A DNA stretch of 47,750 nucleotides from the sequence record PZ379542.1. One strand, written 5' to 3'. The stretch is from a phage. Each line of letters opens with the position of its first letter. The first letter of the stretch is position 1. This document shows positions 6,024-42,031 of the stretch, in pieces. The position numbers and the translations under genes were made by a program. The notes beneath the pieces are model-generated. The model was not told the origin of the DNA. It saw nothing but the letters and a program-made list of their open reading frames with translations, and did no database searches.

Positions 6024-6069
6024 AATGATATCTCATCCTTGAGATTTGTCTTTAGCAATTGGTGCTATT
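6024..6069 (-). promoter_or_regulatory. palindrome-containing promoter cassette (AATAGCACnnnTTGCTAAA + extended -10)
   Basis: Minus-strand motif aaatagcaccaattgctaaa; -10 tatcat at conserved spacing; ccattgaaacga leader; upstream of lipoprotein gene. Confidence 0.6.
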
Positions 6070-6741
6070 TGCTATGAAGACTGCTTTTGCAAAACCGCGA
6101 GGAGTTAGACTGTGAATTACCTTTGTCTTCTTACTCTTCCCACCAAGCTTCTTGTATTGGTCAGAGAATCCATCGTTAACGTCCACAGGAATCGCCTCTG
6201 GCCATTTAAACCCATTGCCATACCAAATGCATGTCTTCTTGGGATATGCGTCTTTTGTCTTTATTAGGTCGCTAAAAAACGGGTGTAAATCATCTTCCGG
6301 CAAATAGCCTCCGTATTCATATGGGTGGAAAGTCTTATTAGGCTTTCTCCAGAGTGATGACAGTACGCTGATTGGATTCTCAATCATGTATGGGACTTCG
6401 TACTTATTAGCCAAGTTAAAAGCAACTTTACATGTTTCCGCAGCTTCAATCTGGAAGTTATGGTTAACCAGTCGCTTTCGCTCAAAGTGCCTTGACCCGC
6501 TCACGGCTAAATCCGTACACGGCGGGAACGCTAAAATGATATCAGGCTTCACATCAAAGTCGAAGTTGCCATCTATCCAGGCATTAACGTAGGTGATGTT
6601 CTCATGTTCAAATTTTGCATTTAAATCCCCGCAACTACCGTGGTCAGACTCATCAAAGTTGAAACAGTAGCACTCGTGACCAGCTTCGGCCCAATCTTTC
6701 ACAGCCAGCCCTGAACCATCAAATAAAGACCAGATAACCAT
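6052..6741 (-). CDS. DNA (cytosine-5) methyltransferase-like protein
   Basis: Motif I-like SLFDGSG, motif IV-like FPPCTDLAVSG, motif VI-like MIENP; ATG at 6741 with GAGAGAGG RBS; C-terminus NSTNC encoded by the repeat motif. Confidence 0.65.
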   Translation of the reverse strand: MVIWSLFDGSGLAVKDWAEAGHECYCFNFDESDHGSCGDLNAKFEHENITYVNAWIDGNFDFDVKPDIILAFPPCTDLAVSGSRHFERKRLVNHNFQIEAAETCKVAFNLANKYEVPYMIENPISVLSSLWRKPNKTFHPYEYGGYLPEDDLHPFFSDLIKTKDAYPKKTCIWYGNGFKWPEAIPVDVNDGFSDQYKKLGGKSKKTKVIHSLTPRGFAKAVFIANSTNC

Positions 6742-6772
6742 TTTGAAATCCTCTCTCGTTTTTTTGTGTGAC

Positions 6773-6818
6773 CAACTATACATGGTTTTGCGGATTAGTT
6801 TTAGCTATTCGTGCTGTT
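6773..6818 (-). promoter_or_regulatory. palindrome-containing promoter cassette (variant)
   Basis: Minus-strand cagcacgaatagctaaa; tgtatagt extended -10; upstream of methyltransferase-like gene. Confidence 0.5.
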
Positions 6819-6904
6819 GGTTACGCGTAACCGATGTAACTCTATGTATACCATATGCATCAGCGGGAAATCGTATACGCCTAGTTACGCTTTGATACGC
6901 CATA

Positions 6905-6967
6905 GTTACATAATAATATCTATATATATCAACCATTTACTCTTATTATTATTATTATATATATTAC
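6905..6967. repeat. AT-rich conserved block, copy 1 (gttacataataatatctatatatatcaacc...ttattattattat...)
   Basis: Near-identical to 26178-26242; (tta)n(ta)n tract. Confidence 0.85.
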
Positions 6968-7282
6968 TGTGTATATCATGTAACTACTGTTCTGGAGTGT
7001 TCCGGTTATAATTTTTATATAATGTGATTTTATACAGTATTGCGTGGCGCATATAACTATGCACCCTCCGCAAAAATCGGTATACACGGTATACGCACTA
7101 TTTACATTGAGCTATAGCTGGGCTGAAGTGGTGAAAAACGTAACTAATGGCAATGTCTACACATAGTTACGGATTTATACGCGTATACTTGATTAATTAA
7201 TCGGTGATACCAATTGGACTGTGTGTCTTGCGTGCGGCATCATTAACGCATCGAAAGCAAACAACAACAGAGAGATACAGAA

Positions 7283-7477
7283 ATGACCTACTACATTATC
7301 AAAGAGAAAAACAACGCACTGTTCGGCGACTGCTACTTTGGTGGCCCAGCCGGATACACTACCAAAAAATCTGAAGCCGACCAATTCGAGACAAAGGAAG
7401 AGGCCAAGGAGTTGCTTACAGGATACTTCACTGAAGAAGATTTGAAAGCTATTAAGATTGTTAAAATTAAGGATTGA
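7283..7477 (+). CDS. hypothetical protein
   Basis: First ORF of rightward operon; ATG with upstream purine-rich RBS. Confidence 0.5.
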   Translation: MTYYIIKEKNNALFGDCYFGGPAGYTTKKSEADQFETKEEAKELLTGYFTEEDLKAIKIVKIKD

Positions 7478-7480
7478 ACC

Positions 7481-8452
7481 ATGACATTTAAAGTTTATAC
7501 GAACGACGAGCTAACCAATGAAGCCTATCACGAAGAGAAAGACCATATCTCTGGCTCTTCGCTGGCTGAGATTCTTGCTACTTCTCCAGCAAAATGGAAA
7601 TTTAAGCAGCGCAGCAACTCTAGCGCAGCACTTAAATTTGGCACACTAAGTCACTGCATGATGCTAGAGCGCGAGGTATTTGACTTAACATACATGCGAG
7701 CTACTGACTTTGACGAAGTGGAAGGATTGATTACTAGCCAAACGGCTTTATCCGCAGCGCTTAAAAAAGTTGGAGTTTCAGGCACGTCAGGTAAGGGATA
7801 TAGCGAGCTCGTGGAGATGATGTATAAATCTGGTGAGGATTGGCCTGTTAAATGGTTAATTGAGCAGCAGGAGAGCGCTGAGGCGTTAATTAGTGGCAAA
7901 GAGCTCGTTACTGCGAAAGATTACGATAAGGTAATCTCAATGCGCGAGGTTCTGACTAATATCCCAGCTTACGATGCGATTATTAACTCACCAACAGCAC
8001 AGAAAGAGCTATCAATCTTTGGTGAGATTCTTGGGTGTGGTGTTAAGGTTAGGCTTGATCACGTGGATGTTGTTGATGGCGTGGTTTTCATTACTGACTA
8101 CAAGACGACGGCGGACGCAAGCCCGAGAGGATTTGGCAAGTCAGCTTATGACCATGGATACCTGTGCAAAATGAGCCTTCAGCGTGACTTGTTCGTGAAG
8201 GCATTTAACGAGAAGCGTAAGGTTGTGGTTCGACTTCTGGCGCAGGAAAAAACGGAGCCTTACTTACCAATGAGCTACACGCTTACAGATGAACAGCTTC
8301 GCATTGGTCGTTTACAATATTGTGAGGCACTAGCAACATACAAACAGTGCAAGGAGCTTGATGTATGGCCTGGGTATAGCAATGGGATTACAGAGCAAGA
8401 TTTGATGATTCCTGAGTGGGTAAGTAAGCAGTATCAAGAACTTCTAAAATAG
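7481..8452 (+). CDS. PD-(D/E)xK family exonuclease (recombination exonuclease)
   Basis: VRLDHVDVVDGVVFITDYKT D...D/E-x-K signature; adjacent to ERF and SSB. Confidence 0.7.
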   Translation: MTFKVYTNDELTNEAYHEEKDHISGSSLAEILATSPAKWKFKQRSNSSAALKFGTLSHCMMLEREVFDLTYMRATDFDEVEGLITSQTALSAALKKVGVSGTSGKGYSELVEMMYKSGEDWPVKWLIEQQESAEALISGKELVTAKDYDKVISMREVLTNIPAYDAIINSPTAQKELSIFGEILGCGVKVRLDHVDVVDGVVFITDYKTTADASPRGFGKSAYDHGYLCKMSLQRDLFVKAFNEKRKVVVRLLAQEKTEPYLPMSYTLTDEQLRIGRLQYCEALATYKQCKELDVWPGYSNGITEQDLMIPEWVSKQYQELLK

Positions 8453-8493
8453 CACTAATTGCTAAAGACAAAATCAAAAGGTGAGGTATGATT
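8448..8493 (+). promoter_or_regulatory. palindrome-containing promoter cassette
   Basis: aatagcactaattgctaaa; tatgat at -10 position; ctgaaacga leader; motif TAG is the stop codon of the exonuclease gene. Confidence 0.6.
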
Positions 8494-8522
8494 GCCCCAC
8501 TGAAACGAAAGAGAGATAGTTA

Positions 8523-12229: not shown

Positions 12230-12276
12230 AGTAGCACTAATTGCTAAAGTGGATTGTATCATCTTTCAGGTATAAA
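12230..12276 (+). promoter_or_regulatory. palindrome cassette copy (orphan or antisense orientation)
   Basis: gtagcactaattgctaaa + tataaa; points rightward into the minus-strand primase gene; overlaps the tailspike 5' UTR. Confidence 0.4.
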
Positions 12277-12294
12277 AAAACCTCCCGAAGGAGG
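12274..12294 (-). terminator. rho-independent terminator (minus strand)
   Basis: cctcc-ttcg-ggagg hairpin followed by T7 on the minus strand, after the primase stop. Confidence 0.7.
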
Positions 12295-13221
12295 TTAGTC
12301 TAGTAATTCGTTTGCCTTGTATATTCTCTTTCTTATGCCTGACTTGAAAAAATTACCATCATTTGGAATTACAATATCAAGATTGCGATCGTCAGCAACG
12401 GCAAGTAAATCAAAAGAGTTGCGAGTACAAGCGACGCGTAACTTGTAGTTCCTAAGCGCATAAGCAACCATTTCCATGTTGTAGCTGGAGTGGCAAACAA
12501 GCACGCAGCGATTTCCAGTAGCAAGATGAACGCGAACACCATCAATCCAATTATCGACCAGATAAGCGTACTCATCATCTTTAAAGGTGCCAATAATAGA
12601 AACAGACTGGCGAGTATAATCTTTTGCAGCATAGCTAACATCTCCATCTTCATTGATAAACATTACATTGCACATATCATCTGATATGCCGTCACTATAA
12701 GCCATAAAGCACGGTACTGCGTGTATTAGTTCGCCTGATTTCGTCCTGCCAACATCAAAACCAAATTCGCTATAGATACCCTCGTATGTACTTAGCGGAG
12801 TTAATTCTACTCTTTCCGTCCTTTCCATTATCTCTAAGCATCTTTCGTGATCAATCTTGGCGCCCATTTTGTATGGTGATGTACGAGATGCTCTTTTGTT
12901 TGCTTTTGATATAACCTCTACTGGAACGAGATTCAGCCAATCACCAAGCGTATCTATTGTTTCGCTATAACTCATTCCCGAGCATTTCATAACCCAGCCA
13001 ACACCAGAATCATTTCCGCACTGGTTGCATATTGCTGCGCCATTTCCCTTTTCCTGACCTAACTCATCAGTGAAGCGAAACCTATCCCTGCCAAAGCAGT
13101 AAGGGCACGGACCATGTTTCTTGCTGAGATTCTCCTTTGTCCATCCAAGGTTCGATGAGTAGAATTCGCCCCACATTCCCTTCATTTTTGCTATCACTTC
13201 GCTCTTATCATGGTGACTCAT
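12295..13221 (-). CDS. DNA primase (zinc-ribbon + Toprim)
   Basis: CPYCFGRDRF...CNQCGND zinc-binding motif; ATG 13221 with GGAGGT RBS. Confidence 0.75.
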   Translation of the reverse strand: MSHHDKSEVIAKMKGMWGEFYSSNLGWTKENLSKKHGPCPYCFGRDRFRFTDELGQEKGNGAAICNQCGNDSGVGWVMKCSGMSYSETIDTLGDWLNLVPVEVISKANKRASRTSPYKMGAKIDHERCLEIMERTERVELTPLSTYEGIYSEFGFDVGRTKSGELIHAVPCFMAYSDGISDDMCNVMFINEDGDVSYAAKDYTRQSVSIIGTFKDDEYAYLVDNWIDGVRVHLATGNRCVLVCHSSYNMEMVAYALRNYKLRVACTRNSFDLLAVADDRNLDIVIPNDGNFFKSGIRKRIYKANELLD

Positions 13222-13245
13222 AGTTACCTCCATAAACAATAAAGG

Positions 13246-13291
13246 CACTATACACAATGTATAGCGCCACTGTTTATCAATTCGTGCTATT
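13246..13291 (-). promoter_or_regulatory. palindrome-containing promoter cassette (variant TTGATAAA)
   Basis: Minus-strand aaatagcacgaattgataaa; tgtgtatagt extended -10; upstream of primase. Confidence 0.6.
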
Positions 13292-13769
13292 TCCCTTGCT
13301 CTTTATCTTTTCGTGCTGCTTCGTTAGCGGCCTTAATCTTGCGCCATGAGCGACACTCTGGTTTAGTTGCTAGCTCAGCCTCAGTAACAACACGCAGCAT
13401 ATGACGCTTCTTGCAACGTAGAGTTAGCGGTTTCCCGTTACCGTCGAATTGCAGATCTGGTCGGCAGAATGTAGCGCGAAAACCTTCTCCATTTCGCTTA
13501 TAGTAGTTGTGCGACAACTGAGCGCCACGCGCAGAAATCATCCCGCGATCAAACCATTGCTCTACAGTCTGGTGAGATACATTTAACTGCTTGGCGATAT
13601 TGGCCTTCGTGCCGTAGAAATCAAGAACCATCTCCAGACGAGCTCGTAGCCCAGCCTTTACTTCATCTTTCAATACGTAGTAGCCTGACGGTCGTTTGCG
13701 CTGTTTCTTGTCTTGCGTGCGGATGGTTCCGTTATTGCCGTTGATAGTTCGCTTGTCAATTTCACACAT
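13287..13769 (-). CDS. HTH DNA-binding protein (candidate transcriptional regulator)
   Basis: Helix-turn-helix GTKANIAKQLNVSHQTVEQWFDRG; basic termini. Confidence 0.65.
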   Translation of the reverse strand: MCEIDKRTINGNNGTIRTQDKKQRKRPSGYYVLKDEVKAGLRARLEMVLDFYGTKANIAKQLNVSHQTVEQWFDRGMISARGAQLSHNYYKRNGEGFRATFCRPDLQFDGNGKPLTLRCKKRHMLRVVTEAELATKPECRSWRKIKAANEAARKDKEQGK

Positions 13770-13780: not shown

Positions 13781-13826
13781 AATAGCACTTTTTGTTAAAC
13801 AATAGGTTCGATAATTGCTATTATAC
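13781..13826 (+). promoter_or_regulatory. palindrome-containing promoter cassette
   Basis: aatagcactttttgttaaa; ttgctattat extended -10; upstream of helicase; also overlaps the 5' UTR of the divergent HTH gene. Confidence 0.6.
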
Positions 13827-13865
13827 AGCAATGCAACGAACTAACAAACTGTAAGGGTATTTAAA

Positions 13866-14675
13866 ATGCTTCCAGTAGAGCGCTTAGTGGCGAACTTTGA
13901 TAAAGAGAAAATTAAACAGATTCAGAAAGATTACCAGTTTGGAGACATAACGCCTTACGAATTCCAGTGCGTGACATTTGACGCAATCGGTAAGGCTATT
14001 GGCAAGTACGAAGCGCCATTCATCGCAGACCTGTCGGTGTCTGCTGGTAAGACAATTATACTCGCCATGATTGGGAAACGAATGGAACAGCTTGGCCTTC
14101 CTTACATGGTCCTATCTCGCCAGTCAGAGATTATCAGCCAGAACGCAGAGGAACTTCGTAATTTCGGCATCCGTAATAGCGTCTATTGCGCTGGCCTTAA
14201 CGTTAAATCAGTTTACTACCCAACCATAGTGGCTAGCGAGGGTACGGCTGCCAACGGCTTATTTAAGGGGCTTGGTGACTATGTTCCGGCTGTTATCGCG
14301 ATAGATGAGTGCTTAACTGGAGACACGATGATAACCACCGATTCAGGGATGATGAGGATTGATAGCGAAGACCTTATCAATCATAAAATAAAATGCATAA
14401 ACGAAAGCACTGGTGATTACTTCTATCATAAGCCAAAAAGAGTTTTTACTAATGGTGTAAGACATGTATCATCAATTAAATTAGAAAGCGGAGAGGAAAT
14501 AAAATGCACGAGTACACACAAACTTTATTCGAACGGCTGCTGGGTAGGAGCGGGAAAACTTCGTATTGGGATGAATCTGTCGCTAGACGGCTCGCAGGAC
14601 AAATTTACGAAAAAGCTCCTGCGTGCAAGTGTGGCTGTGGTGAAAAAGTTATGCCGCATTCAAGCAAGGGGTTAG
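13866..14675 (+). CDS. SF2 helicase N-terminal part (Walker A, DE of DECH) fused to intein N-terminal splicing domain
   Basis: SVSAGKT Walker A; AIDE then CLTGDT (intein block A) and TSTH...GCWVGAGKLRIGMNL (block B); frame ends at TAG 14674-14676. Confidence 0.8.
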   Translation: MLPVERLVANFDKEKIKQIQKDYQFGDITPYEFQCVTFDAIGKAIGKYEAPFIADLSVSAGKTIILAMIGKRMEQLGLPYMVLSRQSEIISQNAEELRNFGIRNSVYCAGLNVKSVYYPTIVASEGTAANGLFKGLGDYVPAVIAIDECLTGDTMITTDSGMMRIDSEDLINHKIKCINESTGDYFYHKPKRVFTNGVRHVSSIKLESGEEIKCTSTHKLYSNGCWVGAGKLRIGMNLSLDGSQDKFTKKLLRASVAVVKKLCRIQARG

Positions 14676-15449
14676 GCGTACTTCTTAAGAACCCTTTCGA
14701 TTTCTATTTGGATTACAGAACGGGGCATCATAATTCAACCGTCAACCCATCAATGGAGGTTGATGACTTTTTACATCAAAACATTCTTGCGGCAATGGCT
14801 GGTGATGGTTGCTTGATTAAAAATACAGAAAAAGGAACGCATAGGCTATCTTGGAATATGGGAAATAAGGAGCACGCACTAAGCAAGGTTGAAAGGTTTG
14901 CAAAACTAAACCCTAGATACAGGGAGAAGAAAAACCCTGGATTTGGCGACAACTGGTTTTGCGTATCAACATCATGTACGAAAGTTCTGGATTCATATGC
15001 TGATAAGTACGGAAATTCTAAGGATGGTTACGATATTGGAAAGATATGCAGAGAGCTTAATCCAGTTGGTTGGGCTGCTTACTTTGGTGATGATGGTCAT
15101 TGCACTGTAAGCTCAGGGAAGAGGGTTGTAGAAATCCACACCGAATCATTTAGCAGGCGTGAAGTTCAATCAGTAGTTGATGCGCTAATAGCATTTATTG
15201 CTAATGACGGAGTTAAGGTTAGAAGCTATATTGGCGGCAAGAAAAAGAGAGAGCTTTACTCAGTATCAATAACAACGAGGTCGGCACAAGATGAGTTTTT
15301 TAAGAGAATTAGTAAGCACATGGAAAATGGCGTGGAATACAAAATCAAGCAAAATTAAAGACATCTCACCCATTGGCAAGGAACTTGTTTGGGATATAGA
15401 GATGCCTGAGCACCATAATTTCATTGCTGACGGGGTCGTGGCACATAAT
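14310..15449 (+). mobile_element. intein in helicase motif II (DE|CH), LAGLIDADG type; split or frame-shifted
   Basis: Starts Cys 14310; ends ...GVVAHN 15449 followed by +1 Cys; exactly 1140 nt; the endonuclease domain is in a different frame. Confidence 0.75.
14504..15358 (+). CDS. LAGLIDADG homing endonuclease (intein-associated; separate frame)
   Basis: Two motifs ILAAMAGDGC and WAAYFGDDGH about 100 aa apart; GGAGAGG RBS 7 nt before ATG 14504 (alternative ATG 14651). Confidence 0.65.
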   Translation: MHEYTQTLFERLLGRSGKTSYWDESVARRLAGQIYEKAPACKCGCGEKVMPHSSKGLGVLLKNPFDFYLDYRTGHHNSTVNPSMEVDDFLHQNILAAMAGDGCLIKNTEKGTHRLSWNMGNKEHALSKVERFAKLNPRYREKKNPGFGDNWFCVSTSCTKVLDSYADKYGNSKDGYDIGKICRELNPVGWAAYFGDDGHCTVSSGKRVVEIHTESFSRREVQSVVDALIAFIANDGVKVRSYIGGKKKRELYSVSITTRSAQDEFFKRISKHMENGVEYKIKQN

Positions 15450-17000
15450 TGCCACATGGTGGACCATATGGATATCGTAGAAGCTGAAGAGAATGAGGAA
15501 ACATTCGAGCAGATGAGCACGAAGAAGGGTGAGATGGTCTTTAAGGATGGTGTGAATACCGGGCTTCTTGGCACTGGTCGCGCGCAATACACGTTAATCA
15601 TTACCGAAATGAAGCGTCGATGCAAGGAGAAGTACGGTCGCGAACTTCGTATCTTTGGGTTAACTGGTAGCCCGTACCGTAACAACGACCACATTGTAGT
15701 TAGTAACCCAAATGTCCGTGGATTCTGGCGCAAAACTGTAATGCAAGTGCCAACCAGCTACCTTGTTGACTTGGGGTTTGTTGTTCCTACTGTCTACGGT
15801 GAAGTTGGTGATTTGGGCTACGACCTTAGTGAGTTCACTCCTGATGGAAGTGATGGGGTTAAGGACTTCAGCAAGAAAGAAATGGATGCGATGGCTGCAA
15901 AGATTCACGAAAACCAAACGATGACACAAAAGATAATGGGATTTGCTGCTAAGTTTATGGAAACAAGGAATGCTGCATTGGTAACTTGCGCTGGCAAACA
16001 GCATTGCGAGGAGGCGGCAGCCGCACTTCCAGAAGGTGTTACTTGGGCGATAGTTACCAACTCCACTGGTGAGAAGAAGCGTAGAGAGATACTTGAGAAG
16101 GCAGCCAACGGAGAATATAAGTTCATATTTCAGATTGGTTGCCTCACAACTGGCGTAAACTGCCCCCCGTGGGATACAAGCATTATCCTGAGGAAGGTTG
16201 GTAGCATTACTCTACTCATTCAGTTGCTTGGTCGTGGTATGCGTATCCTTAAGAAGAAGCACAAAGAAGCTGGAATGGTAAAAGATGACCATGTTGTTCT
16301 TGATTTTGCTGGAACGCTTGATGATATGGCTGAACTTTACTTCGACCCAATTATAGAAGAGGTACAAGACCAGAAATTTAGGTCAGCAAGAAAGCGTGGT
16401 GATGAGCCAAGAATCTGTCCGGTATGCTCTTATGGGAACTCTCCATTCGCCAGGCGCTGCAATAACGTAATTGACGGGAAGCGCTGTGAGCACTTCTTTC
16501 AGTTTAGACTGTGTGAAGATATAGCGGACCCACAGACCAAAGCTATCATCAAGAAAGGATGCGGTGAGAAGAATGATATTGCAGCTAAGAATTGCAGATG
16601 CTGTGGTGAGATGCTCATAGACCCGAATGCTAAGTTATCAGGAAAAATGTATCGTAAGGGGGACTGGTTGCGAGTTTATGACTTCAAGATTGGGTTAACA
16701 AAGAACCAGTCAGGGATTGTTGCTTCATATGAGGTAATGGCTCATAGTGGAGATAAGTTCCGAGCTTATGAAACATTCTTCCCGGAGTCAGACCATCGTG
16801 TTTGTTCTGTCAAATGGAAGGCGTTTTGCTCAACTCACATCGAGAACAGGACTGAGGCTTTTAGGATTGGCAGATTGCGTAATGCTAAAATGATTATGAC
16901 AAATGCACATCTTTTCCGTGCGCCGCTAAGGATTACGCACCGCAAGAATCAGAAGTCGCAAGATATTATCGCCAACAAATCATTTACGATGGAGGATTGA
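15291..17000 (+). CDS. intein C-terminal splicing domain fused to helicase C-terminal part
   Basis: KIKDISPIGKELVWDIEMPEHHNFIADGVVAHN|C (blocks F/G); then LTGSP and QLLGRGMR helicase motifs and Cys-rich zinc-ribbon-like C-terminus. Confidence 0.8.
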   Translation: MSFLRELVSTWKMAWNTKSSKIKDISPIGKELVWDIEMPEHHNFIADGVVAHNCHMVDHMDIVEAEENEETFEQMSTKKGEMVFKDGVNTGLLGTGRAQYTLIITEMKRRCKEKYGRELRIFGLTGSPYRNNDHIVVSNPNVRGFWRKTVMQVPTSYLVDLGFVVPTVYGEVGDLGYDLSEFTPDGSDGVKDFSKKEMDAMAAKIHENQTMTQKIMGFAAKFMETRNAALVTCAGKQHCEEAAAALPEGVTWAIVTNSTGEKKRREILEKAANGEYKFIFQIGCLTTGVNCPPWDTSIILRKVGSITLLIQLLGRGMRILKKKHKEAGMVKDDHVVLDFAGTLDDMAELYFDPIIEEVQDQKFRSARKRGDEPRICPVCSYGNSPFARRCNNVIDGKRCEHFFQFRLCEDIADPQTKAIIKKGCGEKNDIAAKNCRCCGEMLIDPNAKLSGKMYRKGDWLRVYDFKIGLTKNQSGIVASYEVMAHSGDKFRAYETFFPESDHRVCSVKWKAFCSTHIENRTEAFRIGRLRNAKMIMTNAHLFRAPLRITHRKNQKSQDIIANKSFTMED

Positions 17001-17001: not shown

Positions 17002-17421
17002 ATGAAAATCACAGACAAAGGTGATTACCTCGAGTTCTATGGCGGACCGGTGAAGTCATGCCCAAAGGAAGACGATGAACAAATCTTCTGCTCTGATTGG
17101 GTGAAATACAACTATCCGCAGATTGTTTACTGGCACACGATTAACGAAAATAAAAAGAGCATTGGTCAAGCAAGAAAAGACCAAGCCAAGGGGCTTCTCA
17201 AAGGTGTGTCAGACTGCTTATTTCTGATACCTGAGTCATTGCGTGGCGGTTATCCATTTGGCGCCATAGAGTTAAAGAGGGCTGGTAAAACGCAAGCAAG
17301 CCCAGTTAGCAATGAGCAAAAGTCATTCCTAAAAAGCGTAAGTGAATCAGGCGGTTTCGCAGCGGTGGCTTATGGAAGAGAGGGTTTTCTTGCGGCATTC
17401 GCAGAGATGATAAGAAAATAG
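17002..17421 (+). CDS. VRR-NUC domain nuclease
   Basis: GVSDCLFLIPE...GAIELKRAGKTQASPVSNEQKSF PD-(D/E)xK-like VRR-NUC pattern; start overlaps helicase stop. Confidence 0.65.
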   Translation: MKITDKGDYLEFYGGPVKSCPKEDDEQIFCSDWVKYNYPQIVYWHTINENKKSIGQARKDQAKGLLKGVSDCLFLIPESLRGGYPFGAIELKRAGKTQASPVSNEQKSFLKSVSESGGFAAVAYGREGFLAAFAEMIRK

Positions 17422-17462
17422 CACGAATTGCTAAAGACGAATTGGTGAGTTGGTGTATTATC
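17417..17462 (+). promoter_or_regulatory. palindrome-containing promoter cassette
   Basis: aatagcacgaattgctaaa; tgtattat; ctcatcgaaacga leader; motif TAG is the VRR-NUC stop. Confidence 0.6.
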
Positions 17463-17499
17463 AACTCATCGAAACGAAACACACAAAGAGAGAAAGAAA

Positions 17500-18620: not shown

Positions 18621-19757
18621 ATGGCAGCAGCAAAGATTACCAACGAGCAATTAATCGAAGAACTGAAAAACGGCCTTACTAACAAGGCGATTGCAGAGAA
18701 GTATGGTATGAACATTCGTAACGTTGAGATTCGTCGCAGTAAGTTGGCTAAGAGTGGCTTGTTCGGGCATGGTAACGAAGGCATTAAGAAGCTAGTACCG
18801 GACGGATACTTGGTAAAAGGCACTTCGACCATGATTGATGCGGATGGGAATGAGAAGCTGCGTTGGGTTAAGACTTCAATTGATAATGAGCGCCTTGAGA
18901 TTCTGCTTGAGCAAGCACGAGAGGCATTTTGTTCTGACTTACCAAAGGCAGTTGCCAGTGAGTGCCCAGACATTGATTTTGATGATGACACGATGGCTAT
19001 GTATCCGGTTTTCGACCTTCACATTGGCGCAATGGCTCATAAGCATGAGTGCGGTGAAAACTACGACACTGCAACAGCAGAGAAGGTAATGAATAGCTTC
19101 TTTGATTATGCTGTAGATAAGGCTCCTAAATCAATAAATGCGACATTAGTTTTGGGGGGTGATTTTCTGCATTACGACTCTCTAGAGGCTAAAACACCAG
19201 CATCAGGACATATCTTAGACAGCGACAGTCGCTATGCTAAATTGGTTTACGTAGCAATCCGCTCAGTGCGTCGTGCGGTTTCAAGGATGCTTGAGAAGCA
19301 CCAAATCATTGATATTAAAGTAATAAGTGGAAATCACGACGAAGCTGGGATGGTTTGGTTGCGTGCAGCATTGGCGGCATTCTATGAAGACGAGGAGCGA
19401 ATTACTGTCGACGTAAGCCCAGCAGCAATGCTGATGACAAGCTTCGGCTCAACATTGATTGGTTATACTCATGGTCACCAGATGCGAAAAGCTGAAACTC
19501 GACTTACAGTAATGGCTACAGACTTTCGTAAACTATTCGGTAACAGCGAATATGTCTATACACACTCGGGCCACTGGCATAGTCAGAAAATTACAGAAAC
19601 AAACCTGGGTATCGATGAAGTTCATGGTCAGCTTGGCGCGCCAGATGCCTATTCAGCTAATGGAGGATGGCGCTCAATGCGTCAAGCAGCGGTAATCGTT
19701 TACCATAAGCGTTTTGGTGAGGTTGGTCGATTTATTTGTCGCCCTGAGATGTTCTAA
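18621..19757 (+). CDS. calcineurin-like metallophosphoesterase with N-terminal HTH
   Basis: DLHIG, GGDF, GNHDE, GHWH phosphoesterase motifs; N-terminal LTNKAIAEKYGMNIRNVEIRRSKL HTH. Confidence 0.7.
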   Translation: MAAAKITNEQLIEELKNGLTNKAIAEKYGMNIRNVEIRRSKLAKSGLFGHGNEGIKKLVPDGYLVKGTSTMIDADGNEKLRWVKTSIDNERLEILLEQAREAFCSDLPKAVASECPDIDFDDDTMAMYPVFDLHIGAMAHKHECGENYDTATAEKVMNSFFDYAVDKAPKSINATLVLGGDFLHYDSLEAKTPASGHILDSDSRYAKLVYVAIRSVRRAVSRMLEKHQIIDIKVISGNHDEAGMVWLRAALAAFYEDEERITVDVSPAAMLMTSFGSTLIGYTHGHQMRKAETRLTVMATDFRKLFGNSEYVYTHSGHWHSQKITETNLGIDEVHGQLGAPDAYSANGGWRSMRQAAVIVYHKRFGEVGRFICRPEMF

Positions 19758-19802
19758 GTAGCACTTTTTGTTAATAAAGCCTCAAAGGATTGAGGCAAAA
19801 TG
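19757..19802 (+). promoter_or_regulatory. palindrome-containing promoter cassette (weaker -10)
   Basis: gtagcactttttgttaata; caaaat at -10 position. Confidence 0.45.
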
Positions 19803-19831
19803 AATAAACGATAACGAGATGAGGAGTTGTA

Positions 19832-20306: not shown

Positions 20307-20861
20307 ATGAAAAAGTTAATCATCCTTAATGCACCCCCTGGTGCTGGAAAAGATACAGTTGCAGATATCATTGTTAATCTTGGAATTTGCAAGGATAAGG
20401 TTTCATTCAAGTCACCAATGTTTAATGTTGCAAAAGGAATACTATCAAGCGATGAGTTTGATGAATTTATTAAGAATTACGATGACCGAGAGTACAAAGA
20501 ATCACCACATGAATTTCTTGGTGGAATGACGGTTCGTGAATTTATGATTTGGATTAGTGAGTCAGTTATGAAGCCAGTCTTTGGTGATGATGTTTTCGGT
20601 AAAAGGCTAGCGCAATCACTTGGTGATGGTTGCTATATCTGTGCTGATGGTGGCTTCGCTAGCGAGATTAATACTCTCATTGATTCAGGGGTTGAAGTTA
20701 CTTTGATTAGACTTTTTAGGCCTGGCTATACTTTTGATGGAGATAGCCGCTCCTACATTCGCGGTGTCTGCGCAAGAGAAATTGACGTTCATGTTGTAGA
20801 TGGTGATATTGATGGAACCTCTGCTTTGGTAATGCACGTAATAAATAGCACGAATTGCTAA
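20307..20861 (+). CDS. P-loop deoxynucleoside monophosphate kinase-like protein
   Basis: LNAPPGAGKDT Walker A; RPG and DGD blocks resemble T4 gp1 as recalled; ATG 20307 one nt after previous stop; C-terminus NSTNC from the repeat motif. Confidence 0.65.
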   Translation: MKKLIILNAPPGAGKDTVADIIVNLGICKDKVSFKSPMFNVAKGILSSDEFDEFIKNYDDREYKESPHEFLGGMTVREFMIWISESVMKPVFGDDVFGKRLAQSLGDGCYICADGGFASEINTLIDSGVEVTLIRLFRPGYTFDGDSRSYIRGVCAREIDVHVVDGDIDGTSALVMHVINSTNC

Positions 20862-20889
20862 ACAATCGCCGGAGTAATCCGGCATAATT
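20844..20889 (+). promoter_or_regulatory. palindrome-containing promoter cassette
   Basis: aatagcacgaattgctaaa; cataat; ctacatcgaaaacaa leader. Confidence 0.6.
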
Positions 20890-20919
20890 ACTACATCGAA
20901 AACAACAGAGGATTCAAAA

Positions 20920-24239: not shown

Positions 24240-24268
24240 TACTTCTCTCCGCATTGTTTCTGAGCGGC

Positions 24269-24314
24269 CATTATATCAACGACCGCTTATAATTCATTAT
24301 CAATTTGTGCTATT
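24269..24314 (-). promoter_or_regulatory. palindrome-containing promoter cassette
   Basis: Minus-strand aaatagcacaaattgataa; ttgatataat extended -10 (perfect TATAAT). Confidence 0.65.
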
Positions 24315-25017: not shown

Positions 25018-25048
25018 GATCTCTTGCTCTATTTCGTTTCGATGGAGT

Positions 25049-25094
25049 AAATATACGCCATCCGTGGCGGTGAGTTTTAGCAATTAGTGCTATT
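25049..25094 (-). promoter_or_regulatory. palindrome-containing promoter cassette
   Basis: Minus-strand aaatagcactaattgctaaaa; ccacggatggcgtatattt; tccatcgaaacga leader. Confidence 0.6.
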
Positions 25095-25834: not shown

Positions 25835-25861
25835 ATCTATCTCCTCGTTGTTGATGGATTC

Positions 25862-25907
25862 ATTATGGTATCGTCGCCAGTTTTTGTCATTAGCAAAAAG
25901 TGCTATT
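25862..25907 (-). promoter_or_regulatory. palindrome-containing promoter cassette (leftward early/middle promoter)
   Basis: Minus-strand gaatagcactttttgctaa; cataat; tccatcaacaacga leader. Confidence 0.6.
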
Positions 25908-27128: not shown

Positions 27129-27174
27129 AATAGCACTTTTTGCCTAACGATATGACGCCAAGGATGGCATAATT
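27129..27174 (+). promoter_or_regulatory. palindrome-containing promoter cassette
   Basis: aatagcactttttgcctaa; gccaaggatggcataatt; cctcatcgaaacgagagg leader. Confidence 0.6.
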
Positions 27175-27210
27175 ACCTCATCGAAACGAGAGGCACAAAG
27201 GAAAACGAAA

Positions 27211-27454: not shown

Positions 27455-27640
27455 ATGAAAACTAAAATGGTACATAAGAGCGAAGTTAAGATTGGCGATA
27501 CTGTTATCCATCGTGGCTATCTTAGAACTGTAAATGCCAACACTTTTAGTAAGGATGAGTTTATGGGACTACTTCTTTGGGGCGACTCCTACCGGCTTGG
27601 GCAGGAGATGGTTGAAGTCATAATTGATGTTAAGTTTTGA
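27455..27640 (+). CDS. hypothetical protein
   Basis: ORF with GGAGAAA RBS. Confidence 0.5.
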   Translation: MKTKMVHKSEVKIGDTVIHRGYLRTVNANTFSKDEFMGLLLWGDSYRLGQEMVEVIIDVKF

Positions 27641-27685
27641 ATAGCACAAATTGTTAAACCTTCCGCAAGGCCATTTGATATAGTG
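27640..27685 (+). promoter_or_regulatory. palindrome-containing promoter cassette (variant TTGTTAAA)
   Basis: aatagcacaaattgttaaa; tatagt at -10 position. Confidence 0.5.
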
Positions 27686-27732
27686 GCCTTATTAAAGCAA
27701 AGCAAGAGAGGGTGGGATGGATAGGAACAAAT

Positions 27733-28353: not shown

Positions 28354-28493
28354 TTTACGTTCACACGTACTATACAGGTAAGTTTAACAGCGTTAAGCAC
28401 GTGCGAGTTTATGAATCCTACAAGGAAGCAAAAGCTCAGATGGATGTTCTTGGTGGTGCCGTGCATCGATGCGAAGTAGTTGAAGAATTATAA
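28350..28493 (+). CDS. hypothetical small protein (47 aa)
   Basis: ATGA overlap start; stop TAA abuts cassette. Confidence 0.4.
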   Translation: MIYVHTYYTGKFNSVKHVRVYESYKEAKAQMDVLGGAVHRCEVVEEL

Positions 28494-28538
28494 ATAGCAC
28501 GAATTGCTAAACATGAATTGGGATAGGTTGTTATACTT
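28493..28538 (+). promoter_or_regulatory. palindrome-containing promoter cassette
   Basis: aatagcacgaattgctaaa; ttgttatact extended -10; tcccatcaaaacga leader. Confidence 0.6.
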
Positions 28539-28568
28539 ATCCCATCAAAACGAGATGAGGAATTGACG

Positions 28569-29640: not shown

Positions 29641-29780
29641 ATTGGGTGATTGCATGTGAGCGCATCGCATTTGAAATGAAAACGTTCAAATGGTTCATCA
29701 TCAAGGATTGCATAAAGCCATACAAGCAAGGCGTTACTCCAGATCAGTTTGTTAAGTCATTCTATAAACAGCACGAATAG
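29628..29780 (+). CDS. hypothetical small protein (50 aa)
   Basis: Overlapping ORF; stop TAG lies in cassette variant. Confidence 0.4.
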   Translation: MSFVDWVIACERIAFEMKTFKWFIIKDCIKPYKQGVTPDQFVKSFYKQHE

Positions 29781-29812
29781 CTAAACACCAAAGGCATGGA
29801 TGCCATATAATT
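29767..29812 (+). promoter_or_regulatory. palindrome-containing promoter cassette (variant)
   Basis: cagcacgaatagctaaa; gccatataat (perfect TATAAT). Confidence 0.55.
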
Positions 29813-29840
29813 TATATATCAAACAGCGAGAGGTTAGAAA

Positions 29841-32027: not shown

Positions 32028-33596
32028 ATGGCTAATTTAGTTTGGGAGGAAATGACGACAGCAGAAAAGATGGCGGTTAAGGCGATATCCACTCATAGCT
32101 TCGAGGGATTCTTGCGGGTGTGGTTCCAGCTAACTCAGGGAGAGCGGTACATCCCAAACTGGCATCATAAATACCTTTGCAGAATCATTGACGAGATTAT
32201 CGCAGGTGAGCGCAAGGACACTATCATTAACATAGCACCAGGTAGCGGAAAAACAGAGATAGCCTCAATTCACTTCCCAGCATACTCAATGGTGAAGCTA
32301 AAGAAGGTAAGGAACCTCAACATCTCATTTGCTGACTCACTGGTTAAGCGCAACTCCAAGCGAGTGCGCGACCTGATTAAGTCTGTTGAGTTCCAGGAGT
32401 TATTCCCTTGCAAGTTCGGCACGTGCAAGGACGATGAGTTACAGGTCCTTGATGAGTCTGGAAAGGTCCGGTTTGAATCAATCTCAAAAGCTGCTGGCGG
32501 TCAGATTACCGGCGCAAGGGGTGGGTATATAACAGATTCATATAGTGGCGCAGTACTGTTAGATGATTTTGACAAACCTGCAGATATGCTTTCGGCTGTA
32601 TTCCGTGCCAACAACCATGTGATGCTAAAGAACACCATACGTTCTCGTAGGGCTAGCTCGGTAAAAGGCAAGGCGACGCCGATTATCTCTATCCAACAGC
32701 GCCTTCATGTGAATGATAGTACGTGGTTCATGATGAATGGCGGTATGGGTATTAGCTTCGACTTGATTAAGATACCGGCGCTCGTAACTGAGAATTACGT
32801 CGACACGCTCCCTGACTGGATTAAGCAGCAATTCATTGATGACGTTCTATCAAGCGAATATATTGAGCGTGATGGTGTTAGGTACTATAGCTATTTCCCT
32901 GGCAAGGAATCTGTTCACGACCTAGTTGCAATGTGGGATTCTGATAGCTATACATTCCTTAGCCAGTATCAGCAAGAACCAGTAGCACTTGGCGGCAACC
33001 TGATTAACGTAGACTGGCTTCAACGCATTAGCGACACTCTGCGACCGCCAGCTAAGTACGATTACAGGTTTATGGTCCTTGATACTGCGATGACAACCAA
33101 AAGTTACAGCGACTTTAGCGTCATGCAGCTATGGGGTTATAAGGATGGGAAGATTTATCTGCTTGACCAGCGGCGCGGTAAATTTGAAGCTCCTGAGCTC
33201 GAGGCTGAGTTATTGGATTTCGAGAAGATGGCTAGGGCATCCAATCAGATAGATGGTATCCTTCGTAAAATCATCATCGAGAAGAAAGCCTCTGGTATTG
33301 GCCTGATTCAATCAGCCGGAAGGGTTATGCGAACGCCTATCGAGCCGTACGTTCCTGATAACGATAAGCTGACTCGCGTAATGAGTGCATTGCCGCAGAT
33401 TAAAGCTGGTAACGTAATCCTTCCGGAGTCTGCTACTTGGCTTAATGGCTTGCTAACGGAGATTGCGGCATTCACGGCAGATGATTCACATGTTCACGAT
33501 GACCAGATAGACTGTTTGACAATGGCTGTCAACCTGGTACTGAACATTGCAGAAGACCCTAAATCGAGGATGATGCGCCTCGCTGGCATCAAATAG
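32028..33596 (+). CDS. terminase large subunit
   Basis: Walker A IAPGSGKT; C-terminal nuclease-like region; ATG 32028 (alternative in-frame ATG 31977); stop TAG inside cassette motif. Confidence 0.8.
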   Translation: MANLVWEEMTTAEKMAVKAISTHSFEGFLRVWFQLTQGERYIPNWHHKYLCRIIDEIIAGERKDTIINIAPGSGKTEIASIHFPAYSMVKLKKVRNLNISFADSLVKRNSKRVRDLIKSVEFQELFPCKFGTCKDDELQVLDESGKVRFESISKAAGGQITGARGGYITDSYSGAVLLDDFDKPADMLSAVFRANNHVMLKNTIRSRRASSVKGKATPIISIQQRLHVNDSTWFMMNGGMGISFDLIKIPALVTENYVDTLPDWIKQQFIDDVLSSEYIERDGVRYYSYFPGKESVHDLVAMWDSDSYTFLSQYQQEPVALGGNLINVDWLQRISDTLRPPAKYDYRFMVLDTAMTTKSYSDFSVMQLWGYKDGKIYLLDQRRGKFEAPELEAELLDFEKMARASNQIDGILRKIIIEKKASGIGLIQSAGRVMRTPIEPYVPDNDKLTRVMSALPQIKAGNVILPESATWLNGLLTEIAAFTADDSHVHDDQIDCLTMAVNLVLNIAEDPKSRMMRLAGIK

Positions 33597-33601
33597 CACG
33601 T

Positions 33602-33648
33602 TTTGCTAAAGACGCGCCGCCAAGGATGGCTTATAGTTACTTCACGCA
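33602..33648 (+). promoter_or_regulatory. palindrome-containing promoter cassette
   Basis: aatagcacgttttgctaaa; gccaaggatggcttatagt; ttcacgcaaacgagagg. Confidence 0.6.
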
Positions 33649-33665
33649 AACGAGAGGAGTAAAAA

Positions 33666-37791: not shown

Positions 37792-37819
37792 TTGTAACAA
37801 CCACAAAGTCGTGTATAAT
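37792..37819 (+). promoter_or_regulatory. sigma70-like promoter upstream of major capsid gene
   Basis: -35 ttgtaa, 16-bp spacer, -10 tataat preceded by tg. Confidence 0.5.
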
Positions 37820-39944: not shown

Positions 39945-40374
39945 AAATATTGGTGGGTTGGCTACATTTACGAATAGTATTGCTGATTGGATTGATAGAG
40001 CTGATGATAACTTCTCTGATATTGTTTCTGGCACTGTAATTAAGGCTGCTAACGCCATCGTTGATTTATCGCCTGTTGATACTGGTAGGTTTAAGGCTAA
40101 CTGGCAGATTACAGCGAACTCCCCAGCCGCTCAGTCTCTGAATGATTACGACAAAACAGGTGGAGATACAAAAAGGTATCTGGCAAGGCAAGCTCGAGCT
40201 GTGGCTAATTCACCAGCGACAAAGGTTATCTACATAACTAACAGGCTTGATTACGCCTCTGACCTTGAGTATGGATCGTCACAACAAGCGCCAGCAGGTG
40301 TACTTGGTGTAGTCAATATCCGGCTTGGGCGTTACTTCGAAGAAGCCGTAGCTGAAGCAAGGAGTAAACGATAA
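39937..40374 (+). CDS. tail completion / head-tail joining protein (candidate)
   Basis: ATG 39937 after AAGGAGGG RBS. Confidence 0.45.
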   Translation: MARNIGGLATFTNSIADWIDRADDNFSDIVSGTVIKAANAIVDLSPVDTGRFKANWQITANSPAAQSLNDYDKTGGDTKRYLARQARAVANSPATKVIYITNRLDYASDLEYGSSQQAPAGVLGVVNIRLGRYFEEAVAEARSKR

Positions 40375-40772
40375 TGCAGTATGAATTATCTTTGGCGGCA
40401 AGGAGGTTTGTGACTGATTTGGTTAAAACGTTTCCAGTCAGGTATCCAATCTCCTATGAAAACGTAGCCTTTTCCCCTCCAAGAAATGGCGGCATGTGGC
40501 TGAAGTACGATTATACCGAGGCTGACACAGTAACCTATAGCTTGAGTCGCAAGTGTAAGTATTATGTTGGCATGGTTCAGGTATCTGTCTTTTTCTCACC
40601 AGGTGATGGTGTTGATAGTGCGAGGAGAATTGCTAATCAATTGGCAGAATCAATGCTTGATGGTACAATGCTTGACACAGGCTACATTTATGAGGGCGGA
40701 GTAGTTCACCCGGTAGTGAAGTCAAAATCTGGCTGGTTTATTCCAGTTCGTTTCTATGTTCGTCTTGACTAA
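40374..40772 (+). CDS. tail terminator-like protein (candidate)
   Basis: ATGA-coupled; position before major tail protein. Confidence 0.45.
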   Translation: MQYELSLAARRFVTDLVKTFPVRYPISYENVAFSPPRNGGMWLKYDYTEADTVTYSLSRKCKYYVGMVQVSVFFSPGDGVDSARRIANQLAESMLDGTMLDTGYIYEGGVVHPVVKSKSGWFIPVRFYVRLD

Positions 40773-40782
40773 AAGGTTGCAA

Positions 40783-41268
40783 ATGAAAGAGTTCTTAAAT
40801 TCTCTTTACGATTATCGCGATGGTCAAATCTTTCATAAAGGAGGTTCAAAGCCATGTGGGTATGGAAAGCCTAACGGATACATTCAAACTTACGTCTCAA
40901 AGACTGGTAAGAAGTATGTTCACAGGATTATTTGGACAATGCATAATGGAGACATCCCAGAAGGCATGCAAATTGACCATTTAAATGGCAATAGGAGCGA
41001 CAACCGCATTGAGAATTTAAGGTGCGCATCAGTAACTGAAAATAGAAGAAATTCAGGAACGAAATATAGGTATCGTAGATTCCCTGGTGTTAATGGTGTA
41101 AACTACAATAAGCGCGATAATCTTTGGCATGCAATGATTTCTGATAATGGCGTAGCTAAGAGCCTTGGTCATTACAAGTCATTTGTTAGTGCATGTGAAG
41201 CTAGAATTATCGCAGAAGTAAATCTTGGATACCACGTAAATCACGCGATGCGTGATAGCGTATATTAA
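40783..41268 (+). CDS. HNH homing endonuclease (HNH + AP2-like DNA-binding region)
   Basis: HRIIWTMHNGDIPEGMQIDHLNGNRSDNRIENLR; paralogous to the 42982-43467 gene. Confidence 0.8.
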   Translation: MKEFLNSLYDYRDGQIFHKGGSKPCGYGKPNGYIQTYVSKTGKKYVHRIIWTMHNGDIPEGMQIDHLNGNRSDNRIENLRCASVTENRRNSGTKYRYRRFPGVNGVNYNKRDNLWHAMISDNGVAKSLGHYKSFVSACEARIIAEVNLGYHVNHAMRDSVY

Positions 41269-41277
41269 CTTAACTCT

Positions 41278-41955
41278 TTGAATTGGAGGTGTATTATTGC
41301 CCATCTCAGCAATGGCACTCAGGTCTTCGTAGAAGGCACTAGGGGAGCTGCTATCGACGTAACCGCAATTTCCAACGCGGTTAATCCTGTTTTAACTTTG
41401 TCCAGCGTTGCAGATATTGCACGCGGTGACTACCTGTTGTTTACCAGCTCCGCTTCAACTCTGCTGGCTGATAAGCAAGTTCGCGTTACCGCAGTGTCTG
41501 GTTCAACCGTAACTGTTGAAGGTATTGACACCTCCAGCACCACCAAGTTCCCGGCCGGTTTAACTGGTGAAGTGGTTAAGATTCTTAGCTGGTTTGAGGT
41601 TCCTTGCGTTCAGGACGTATCCACTGACGGCGGCGAACAGCAGTTCGTTAACTTCCAGTGTTTATCCGATGACCGTGAGCAACAGATTCCAACTTATAAA
41701 TCTGCGGTAACTAATACCTACACTTTCGCGCACGAATACACCAACCCGATATATCCGATTCTGCGTAACTATGACGAAGCTGGTACTGTTGTTGCTATCC
41801 GTCTGTTCGTACCTCGCGCTAGTGAGATGCGTCTTCAGTCTGGCACTATCGCTTTCAACGACACGCCGAGCATTGGTGTTAACGAAATCGAAACGGTATC
41901 CATTGCGGTATCTATTCGCGGCAGGCTGAGTTCTGTAGCTTCTGAACTGGCATAA
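41278..41955 (+). CDS. major tail protein (candidate); non-ATG start
   Basis: 225-aa frame has no ATG; starts with TTG 41278 or ATT 41296 after GGAGGTG RBS; followed by strong terminator. Confidence 0.55.
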   Translation: MNWRCIIAHLSNGTQVFVEGTRGAAIDVTAISNAVNPVLTLSSVADIARGDYLLFTSSASTLLADKQVRVTAVSGSTVTVEGIDTSSTTKFPAGLTGEVVKILSWFEVPCVQDVSTDGGEQQFVNFQCLSDDREQQIPTYKSAVTNTYTFAHEYTNPIYPILRNYDEAGTVVAIRLFVPRASEMRLQSGTIAFNDTPSIGVNEIETVSIAVSIRGRLSSVASELA

Positions 41956-41960
41956 AAATT

Positions 41961-41983
41961 AACCCTCTTCGGAGGGTTTTTTA
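41961..41983 (+). terminator. rho-independent terminator
   Basis: ccctc-ttcg-gaggg + T6. Confidence 0.8.
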
Positions 41984-41985
41984 TT

Positions 41986-42031
41986 GATAGCACTTTTTGT
42001 TAAAGGCTAAGTCGCGGATTGCTGTATAGTT
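41986..42031 (+). promoter_or_regulatory. palindrome-containing promoter cassette
   Basis: atagcactttttgttaaa; ctgtatagt; ttcatcgaaaaga. Confidence 0.55.

Follow-up and report, generated by a model that had tools for sequence, protein, structure and literature searches.

A repeated promoter cassette was analyzed in the window, a stretch of 47,750 nucleotides (sequence record PZ379542.1) from a virulent T1-like siphophage of the family Drexlerviridae, subfamily Braunvirinae. Its identity is 92.5% to Escherichia phages ES and AN_ECEAS and about 80% to ACG-M12 and its relatives. The data pointed to phage-borne class II marbox promoters that would be read by a host activator of the Mar/Sox/Rob type, a reading to which we give a probability of about 55%. 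The repeat as such is already published, and the marbox identity of the site is new here. The 2024 reannotation of phage TLS described it as a 21-nt direct repeat, aaATAGCACnnnTTGnTAAAA, which was present at 21 sites, was co-oriented with transcription, lay about 76 nt 5' of start codons and fell into A, T and G subgroups in its central triplet (PMC11447400). The same work noted similar repeats for T1, Rtp and Rogue1, reported three canonical promoters only, and left the function of the repeat open, with stoperators, enhancer sites or UP elements as proposals (PMC11447400). We found no link of the repeat to any known regulator in the searchable literature, and a search for reports on marboxes in phages gave nothing relevant.

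The repeat and its fit to the marbox consensus

The sequence-only reading had described about 18 dispersed copies of a cassette built on a TAGCA-N5-TGCTA palindrome, the supposed site of a dimeric activator. All 18 listed copies were genuine when printed in orientation and had the described layout in common. Their coordinates were correct in 17 cases, and the copy placed at 33602 starts at 33592. The pattern TAGCANNNNNTGCTA (TAGCA-N5-TGCTA), searched with no more than one mismatch, gave 18 matches in the whole window against 2.12 expected, and none of 100 shuffled sequences reached 18. A scan of the window with a position weight matrix (PWM) made from the copies added four copies: 43539 (-), a full cassette; 15187 (+), which lies inside a gene; 13320 (-), a degenerate tandem copy; and 18506 (-), which is weak. 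The listed copies were co-oriented with the gene downstream, except for the orphan at 12230 (+), which has no plus-strand gene after it. The genes behind the cassettes were small early-type, replication and recombination genes, with few in the structural module. The 21-mer contained or directly followed the stop codon of the preceding gene in 14 cassettes, as with the TAG of AATAGCAC or the TAA of GCTAAA; therefore, the cassettes are intercistronic junctions of a very compact genome.

Statistics for each position of the site were obtained from 89 distinct cassettes pooled from the window, ES, ACG-M12, T1 and TLS. The symmetric part of the site was 5 bp only, a pseudo-dyad with a 10-bp half-site spacing. 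The mirror positions 1/17 and 7/11 were complementary in 0% and 1% of these cassettes, respectively, and each of these positions carried at least 1.5 bits. Every copy had the same orientation relative to its promoter. Thus, neither the palindrome nor the dimeric activator site was borne out: the flanks are conserved but anti-symmetric, and the 5-bp pseudo-dyad is part of an asymmetric site. A dimeric palindrome site of the CRP, FNR or cI type was rejected for these 89 cassettes, in which dyad symmetry did not extend across the conserved positions.

The classical marbox consensus is AYnGCACnnWnnRYYAAAYn. Searched in the form AYNGCACNNWNNRYYAAAY with no more than one mismatch, it had 16 matches in the window against 1.24 expected (5 perfect, all strand-specific). 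The second form of the consensus, gcannwwntgnnaaa (PMC12052159), had 13 matches in the window with no mismatch against 1.0 expected, and 12 of the 13 were cassettes. The positions of low information in the pooled cassettes, namely 8, 9-10 (A/T only), 14 (C/T) and 19-20, were the n, W and Y positions of the marbox. GCAC, G13 and AAA were near-invariant, with AGCAC and G13 at 2.0 bits. To judge from these matches, the site is an asymmetric 20-mer that fits both consensus forms in sequence, orientation and position, and the 21-mer fits the asymmetric type of marbox that is read by monomeric MarA, SoxS or Rob rather than a dimer palindrome.

For cross-validation, a PWM from the phage copies only was run over six E. 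coli K-12 promoter regions. The single top match was a known or likely marbox in five of the six regions: mar (marO, in reverse orientation), micF, fumC, zwf and rob. The divergent marbox of inaA was not recovered by the phage PWM.

Promoter geometry of the cassettes

The spacer between the 21-mer and the -10 hexamer was 17-19 nt in the window copies, and exactly 18 nt in 13 of 20. It was followed by a hexamer of the TAnnnT type and, in most window copies, by an A at the seventh base past the hexamer. Then came a (C)ATCGAAACGA-like leader, a ribosome-binding site (RBS) and an ATG, 70-104 nt from the start of the 21-mer. A2 and T6 of the hexamer were present in 94 of 101 cassettes, and the relation to the -10 was fixed at 18 nt in 76 of 94. 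The same 18-nt gap to the -10 was found under the phage PWM in E. coli micF and fumC. The best match to a -35 had a median of 3/6 in the 89 distinct cassettes, and canonical -35/-10 promoters showed no enrichment in the window. TTGCTA was rejected as a -35, because its spacer of 22 nt to the -10 is too long. A TGn extended -10 was present in 36% of the 89 cassettes from the five genomes.

Class II promoters of the Mar/Sox/Rob regulon have a forward marbox that overlaps the -35 and is centred between -36 and -55, and RamA lies at about -41 on micF. The core of the phage site was centred at about -40/-41 from the predicted start. The cassettes showed the features of this class: a site with the marbox consensus, placed forward at about -41 over the -35, and a sigma-70 -10 with a weak or absent -35, the start being a predicted one. 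The 18-nt spacing, the poor -35, the lack of enrichment of canonical promoters and the TGn in only 36% therefore argue for an activator-dependent class II architecture, and the cassettes look like sigma-70 class II promoters. The class II geometry in the sequence-only reading thus held: the -10 is good, the -35 is poor, and the upstream site has its centre near -41. The reading was also right that TTGCTA is no standard -35, but not about the extended -10, which it took as a general part of the cassette.

Candidate readers of the site and the spacer hairpins

Cassettes outside Drexlerviridae were sought by an exact-pattern scan of IMG/VR. Citrobacter phage CfP1, an RB43-like relative of T4 (180 kb), had 5-6 full cassettes including the leader. 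Hungariovirus C130_2 (42 kb) had 8-9 full cassettes, also including the leader, before dUTPase, structural and small genes, and an rV5-like contig had one. A hidden Markov model (HMM) of the family of the only annotated regulator of the window, the Cro-like protein encoded at 13287-13769, found no homologue in CfP1 or C130_2 (E at least 0.56), and no protein of the window had a homologue in both phages (blastp, E ≤ 1e-3). No open reading frame (ORF) resembling MarA, SoxS or Rob was found when an HMM of MarA, SoxS and the N-terminus of Rob was run against all six-frame ORFs; the best E values were 0.48 in the window, 1.7 in CfP1 and 1.4 in C130_2. Since the cassettes occur in unrelated phages without the regulator and without a common protein, a host-supplied reader is the most economical explanation, and of the host or phage origins that had been left open for the activator, the evidence favours the host. 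Three of the CfP1 cassettes had the marbox 29 nt from the -10 instead of 18, about one helical turn more, as expected if the activator is bound to one face of the helix. The annotations of T1, TLS and ACG-M12 list no gene for an RNA polymerase or a sigma factor, and TLS is stated to have neither of its own (PMC11447400). A promoter for a phage RNA polymerase of the T7 or N4 type was rejected, as no such gene is annotated in these three phages and the hexamer is a typical sigma-70 -10.

In the proposed mechanism, each cassette would be a self-contained boundary of a sigma-70 transcription unit. Its order would be a marbox-like site of 20-21 bp, an 18-nt spacer often with a hairpin, a TAnnnT -10 without a usable -35, a start at the A about 7 nt after the -10, a leader of the ATCGAAACGA type, an RBS and an ATG. 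A monomeric host activator of the MarA/SoxS/Rob group would bind the marbox at about -41, contact region 4 of sigma and the C-terminal domain of the alpha subunit (alpha-CTD), and so make up for the missing -35 by recruiting host RNA polymerase. Rob would be the obvious candidate because it is constitutively abundant, with MarA and SoxS (RamA in Klebsiella) acting under stress. In this way phage transcription would be tied to the host Mar/Sox/Rob regulon, and most of it would depend on a host stress regulator. Read-through RNA from the upstream gene would be stopped or processed at the spacer hairpins, and each unit would start afresh. That this is a portable marbox-terminator-promoter cassette, common to Drexlerviridae, RB43-like T4 relatives, Hungariovirus and probably rV5-like phages, with host Mar/Sox/Rob regulators running much of early and middle transcription, has in our view slightly less than an even chance. 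If so, phage gene expression would respond directly to bile salts, salicylate, redox stress, antibiotics and clinical mar mutations.

Several points weigh against a reader of the Mar/Sox/Rob type. About one third of the cassettes have an extended -10 and might fire without an activator. The phage sites are much more uniform than host marboxes, which is also compatible with a dedicated reader. Rob is for the most part inactive in cells without stress, and there is little MarA or SoxS, so that the activator may not suffice for about 20 sites in each genome copy. In the searched literature we found no start-site mapping for any T1-like phage, and no report of rob, marA or soxS mutants resistant to such phages. 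The recorded hosts of the Drexlerviridae-like family are almost all Enterobacterales, but phages with Vibrio (Vc1), Pseudomonas (Motto) and Stutzerimonas (STP9) as recorded hosts have the motif too; if these labels are correct, a factor of the Mar/Sox/Rob type may be absent there. The labels are doubtful: the GC content of Motto is 45%, and 'Campylobacter' is given as the host in 20 Drexlerviridae records. Other doubtful host labels were seen as well: STP9 is 94.5% identical to an Enterobacteriaceae phage, and there is a Stenotrophomonas Webervirus.

It is unlikely, in our judgement, that the site works without an activator, as an element like an UP element that is read by RNA polymerase itself, or that a broadly conserved host factor other than MarA, SoxS or Rob reads it. 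The site offers alpha-CTD possible contacts in its A/T-rich centre and its AAA tract, and UP elements or enhancer sites were proposed for TLS (PMC11447400). Cassettes in several phage families without a common phage protein, the possible non-enteric hosts and the 36% of extended -10 elements would also agree with this explanation. However, the G/C core AGCAC and G13 are not UP-like, and the UP element was rejected on this count, since it should be an A/T-rich tract at -40 to -60 without a conserved G/C core and these bases stood at 2.0 bits. In addition, the A-tract lies about one turn downstream of the UP subsite positions, TTGCTA is too far from the -10 to act as a -35, and the fit to the marbox consensus together with the class II spacing would be a coincidence.

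A phage-encoded dimeric helix-turn-helix (HTH) activator, bound in class II position to the TAGCA-N5-TGCTA dyad at about -41, seems improbable. Its candidate would be the Cro-like regulator 13287-13769, which was present in all 825 Drexlerviridae-like records found and has its own marbox-independent canonical promoter, so that it could be made first. The 5-bp pseudo-dyad with its half-site spacing is there, and phages with non-enteric recorded hosts retain the motif. The regulator (AlphaFold2 pLDDT 87) was a single Cro-type HTH protein by Pfam and Foldseek, and its fold is like that of dimeric Cro proteins; the top Foldseek matches were Xfaso-1 and N15 Cro, and there was no AraC-type match. 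However, the conserved flanks of the site are anti-symmetric and the site has a single orientation. The recognition helix was the least conserved segment of the regulator (majority fraction 0.53 vs 0.75-0.78 for the N-arm and Cys region), and the DNA motif was invariant across the phages in which this helix varies. CfP1 and C130_2 use cassettes without a homologue of the regulator, and there would be no reason for the coincidence with a marbox in sequence, degeneracy and position. The regulator was thus not supported as the activator for which it had been a candidate. The same applies to the second candidate, a supposed HTH-phosphoesterase (18621-19757), in which Pfam showed no HTH. Conservation in the regulator lay outside the HTH, in a basic arm at the N-terminus (DKRTxNGNNGTxRGxDxKxRK) and in a C-terminal region where two cysteines are invariant.

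We consider a negative role of the site very unlikely, in which it would act like a stoperator or a roadblock and the protein on it would stop read-through or repress the -10 next to it. This was suggested in the TLS paper (PMC11447400). The sites are intergenic and co-oriented with transcription; the orphan at 12230 and reverse copies before the T1 and TLS capsid genes have no usable promoter; and proteins of the MarA type repress from a badly placed marbox, with rob and purA among the listed targets. However, a fixed distance of 18 nt to a good -10 with a missing -35 is the architecture of an activator, stoperators have no fixed relation to the -10, and these phages are virulent, with no immunity repressor annotated.

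The folding of the spacer was tested in 76 non-redundant cassettes, in which the native stretch from the 21-mer to +10 was compared with chimeras, each made of the upstream half of one cassette and the downstream half of a different one. The mean folding energy was -8.96 kcal/mol for the native and -5.47 kcal/mol for the chimeric sequences (p = 7.8e-9). Two layouts were found. In the first, a G+C-rich stem-loop fills the spacer and abuts the T-rich -10, and several of these hairpins are annotated intrinsic terminators in T1 and CfP1. In the second, which has no T-run, the spacer pairs with the discriminator in a stem whose sequence varies, and the -10 is left in the loop. About half of the cassettes had no hairpin or a weak one, and orthologous cassettes did not always agree in this respect (for example, window 20844 vs ES 37745). 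As the hairpins lie 5' of the predicted start, they should form only in read-through RNA. We infer that they terminate or process the transcripts of the upstream gene and so insulate each unit, and the hairpin is better described as a part that a promoter cassette may have or lack. A signal acting mainly at the RNA level, with the hairpin and the ATCGAAACGA leader as an intercistronic terminator or processing site and the 21-mer as incidental, would suit the folding difference, the annotated terminators and the upstream stops inside the 21-mer (read-through RNA would carry the structure), but it is highly improbable, given the patchy occurrence of the hairpins and the fact that the invariant parts are the 21-mer and the -10. 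A 2026 paper on MarA 'base-pair distortion' was considered for a connection with the hairpins; its subject is a sigma-28 promoter, and we judged it not directly relevant. A second leader type, ACCAATCAG(G)AGG, alternated with the ATCGAAACGA type 5' of the RBS in T1, TLS and VAC10.

Individual cassettes, neighbouring genes and known systems

Cassettes and other promoters of the window, with 21-mer, -10 and downstream start codon (window coordinates; +1 sites are predicted from sequence)
Span (strand)	21-mer	-10	Downstream gene	Remarks
5984..6069 (-)	6069-6049 (AATAGCACCAATTGCTAAAGA)	TATCAT 6030-6025	Cor-like phage lipoprotein gene, ATG 5983	predicted +1 near 6018; perfect match to gcannwwntgnnaaa
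6742..6818 (-)	6818-6798 (AACAGCACGAATAGCTAAAAC)	TATAGT 6780-6775	229-aa ORF, ATG 6741	
8448..8522 (+)	8448-8468	TATGAT 8487-8492	Erf recombinase gene, ATG 8523	TAG within 21-mer is stop of upstream RecE-like gene
12230..12283 (+)	12230-12250	TATAAA (poor), spacer 20		orphan; between primase terminator and tail-fibre gene, both minus strand
13222..13291 (-)	13291-13271	TATAGT 13252-13247	primase gene, ATG 13221	-10 within terminator-like hairpin 13268-13244 plus T-run; TAG within 21-mer is stop of regulator gene; degenerate tandem 21-mer 13320-13300
13781..13865 (+)	13781-13801	TATTAT 13819-13824	helicase gene, ATG 13866	
13820..13847 (-)			Cro-like regulator gene 13287-13769	canonical sigma-70 promoter, TTGTTA-16-TATAAT, 10/12 matches
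15187..15290 (+)	15187-15207 (GCAT variant)	TATATT 15227-15232	C-terminal helicase fragment, ATG 15291	intragenic; inside 3' end of LAGLIDADG endonuclease ORF
17417..17499 (+)	17417-17437	TATTAT 17456-17461	64-aa ORF, ATG 17500	-10 in stem loop (GATGAGTTG / CAACTCATC-type pairing); TAG within 21-mer is stop of upstream VRR-NUC gene
19757..19831 (+)	19757-19777	CAAAAT 19796-19801	PNK-phosphatase gene, ATG 19832	spacer hairpin GCCTCAAAGGATTGAGGC
20844..20919 (+)	20844-20864	CATAAT 20883-20888	57-aa ORF, ATG 20920, before lysis cluster	spacer hairpin CCGGAGTAATCCGG
24240..24314 (-)	24314-24294	TGA-TATAAT 24275-24270	DUF3987 helicase-like gene, ATG 24239	stem AGCGGTC/GGCCGCT around -10
25018..25094 (-)	25094-25074	TATATT 25055-25050	small ORF, ATG 25017	spacer hairpin CGCCACGGATGGCG
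25835..25907 (-)	25907-25887	CATAAT 25867-25862, spacer 19	61-aa ORF, ATG 25834	
27129..27210 (+)	27129-27149	CATAAT 27168-27173	62-aa ORF, ATG 27211	spacer hairpin GCCAAGGATGGC
27640..27732 (+)	27640-27660	TGA-TATAGT 27679-27684	small ORF, GTG 27712 or ATG 27733	stem AAGGCCA/TGGCCTT around -10; near-identical cassettes at T1 3534 and TLS 5135
28493..28568 (+)	28493-28513	TGT-TATACT 28532-28537	small ORF, ATG 28569	stem GGGATAGG/CTTATCCC around -10
29767..29840 (+)	29767-29787	TATAAT 29806-29811	78-aa ORF, ATG 29841	spacer hairpin GGCATGGATGCC
33592..33665 (+)	33592-33612	TATAGT 33632-33637	117-aa ORF, ATG 33666	spacer hairpin GCCAAGGATGGC; 14 consecutive bases of 21-mer identical to E. coli marO marbox; TAG within 21-mer is stop of large terminase gene
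37792..37819			major capsid gene	canonical extended -10 promoter, TTGTAA-16-tgTATAAT; no marbox
41986..42063 (+)	41986-42006	TATAGT 42025-42030	82-aa ORF, ATG 42064, tail module	right behind terminator 41961-41978
43468..43539 (-)	43539-43519 (AATAGCACCAAAAGTCAAAAA)	TATAAT 43501-43496	HNH_3/AP2 homing endonuclease gene, ATG 43467	HNH_3 and AP2-domain gene (42982-43539, minus) is opposite-strand insertion in tail module, with own cassette

The regulator promoter (13847-13820) was marbox-independent and stood face-to-face with the helicase cassette. The -10 of the regulator (minus, 13825-13820) and that of the helicase cassette (plus, 13819-13824) overlapped on the same bases, and this overlap on opposite strands suggests a switch between the two directions. 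Judged by eye, T1 has the same face-to-face arrangement of -10 elements.

The helicase gene was 'fractured'. Its N-terminal fragment (13866-14675) had a weak intein-splicing match at the end, and its C-terminal fragment (15291-17000) had a weak intein match at the start and Helicase_C. In another frame lay an ORF (14504-15358) for a homing endonuclease of the LAGLIDADG_2 type (Pfam E 4.8e-7, above the cut-off). The helicase of ACG-M12 was one uninterrupted gene. The locus of the window looks like a split intein with a free-standing endonuclease.

A reverse marbox, followed by a terminator-like hairpin, was present about 50 nt 5' of the start codon of the major capsid gene in T1, TLS, Vc1 and Motto; the coordinates of such copies are 15040-15150 in T1, 14990-15080 in TLS and 5690-5775 in L011. 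The orphan (12230-12296) was found in the same place in ES, ACG-M12 and T1, with no usable -10 and just 5' of the minus-strand tail-fibre gene. The orphan and the reverse capsid copies in T1 and TLS were rejected as class I sites, since they are too near the start codon. The small ORF 27455-27640, just 5' of the cassette at 27640, showed 46% identity over 45 aa in CfP1 and was one of only two ORFs of the window with any similarity to CfP1. This hints that small genes and cassettes are exchanged together between phages.

T1-like phages transcribe their genes with no polymerase or sigma factor of their own. The class II marbox reading of the TLS repeat is a concrete hypothesis that can be tested with standard strains, inducers and purified proteins. 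Should it hold, a major group of coliphages and Klebsiella phages with therapeutic use would depend on, and react to, the regulon that drives multidrug resistance. There would be consequences for phage-antibiotic synergy, host range (Enterobacterales only) and routes to resistance, and the cassette would be a compact, insulated and inducible promoter part.

The cassettes were compared with known systems. Like the stoperators of mycobacteriophage L5, they are many short, asymmetric, co-oriented intergenic sites. However, L5 stoperators bind a phage repressor and have no fixed relation to a -10, and the fixed 18-nt distance in 76 of 94 cassettes excludes them from this class. Like the middle promoters of T4, which use a MotA box and AsiA, the cassettes have a good -10 and no -35, with an upstream TGCTT-like box instead. 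In contrast, the MotA box has its centre at -30 (11-13 bp from the -10) and works only with the phage proteins MotA and AsiA. A MotA-dependent middle promoter was therefore rejected, because the phage box lies near -41, TTGCTA is 22 nt from the -10, and the only annotated regulator is of the Cro type. No MotA- or AsiA-like protein turned up, no search aimed at these proteins having been made.

The three CfP1 cassettes with the longer spacing resemble E. coli zwf, in which the marbox is one turn further upstream. With the presumed zwf start site, its distance from the -10 is 30 nt, near the 29 nt of CfP1. However, the extra turn in CfP1 is filled by an intrinsic terminator hairpin. The TLS repeat is the same element, aaATAGCACnnnTTGnTAAAA, co-oriented and with the same distance of about 76 nt to the start codon, but the TLS paper did not report the marbox identity, the -10 spacing, the hairpins or the occurrence outside Drexlerviridae (PMC11447400). 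The cassettes also resemble the class II promoters of MarA, SoxS and Rob (RamA), such as micF and fumC. These promoters have an asymmetric marbox with the same consensus and the same degeneracy, which is placed forward over a weak -35, about 18 nt from the -10 and with its centre near -41. The phage copies differ in that there are about 20 near-consensus sites per 48 kb on virulent genomes, whereas the host sites are degenerate, and in that the phage cassettes are fused to spacer hairpins or terminators and to a conserved leader.

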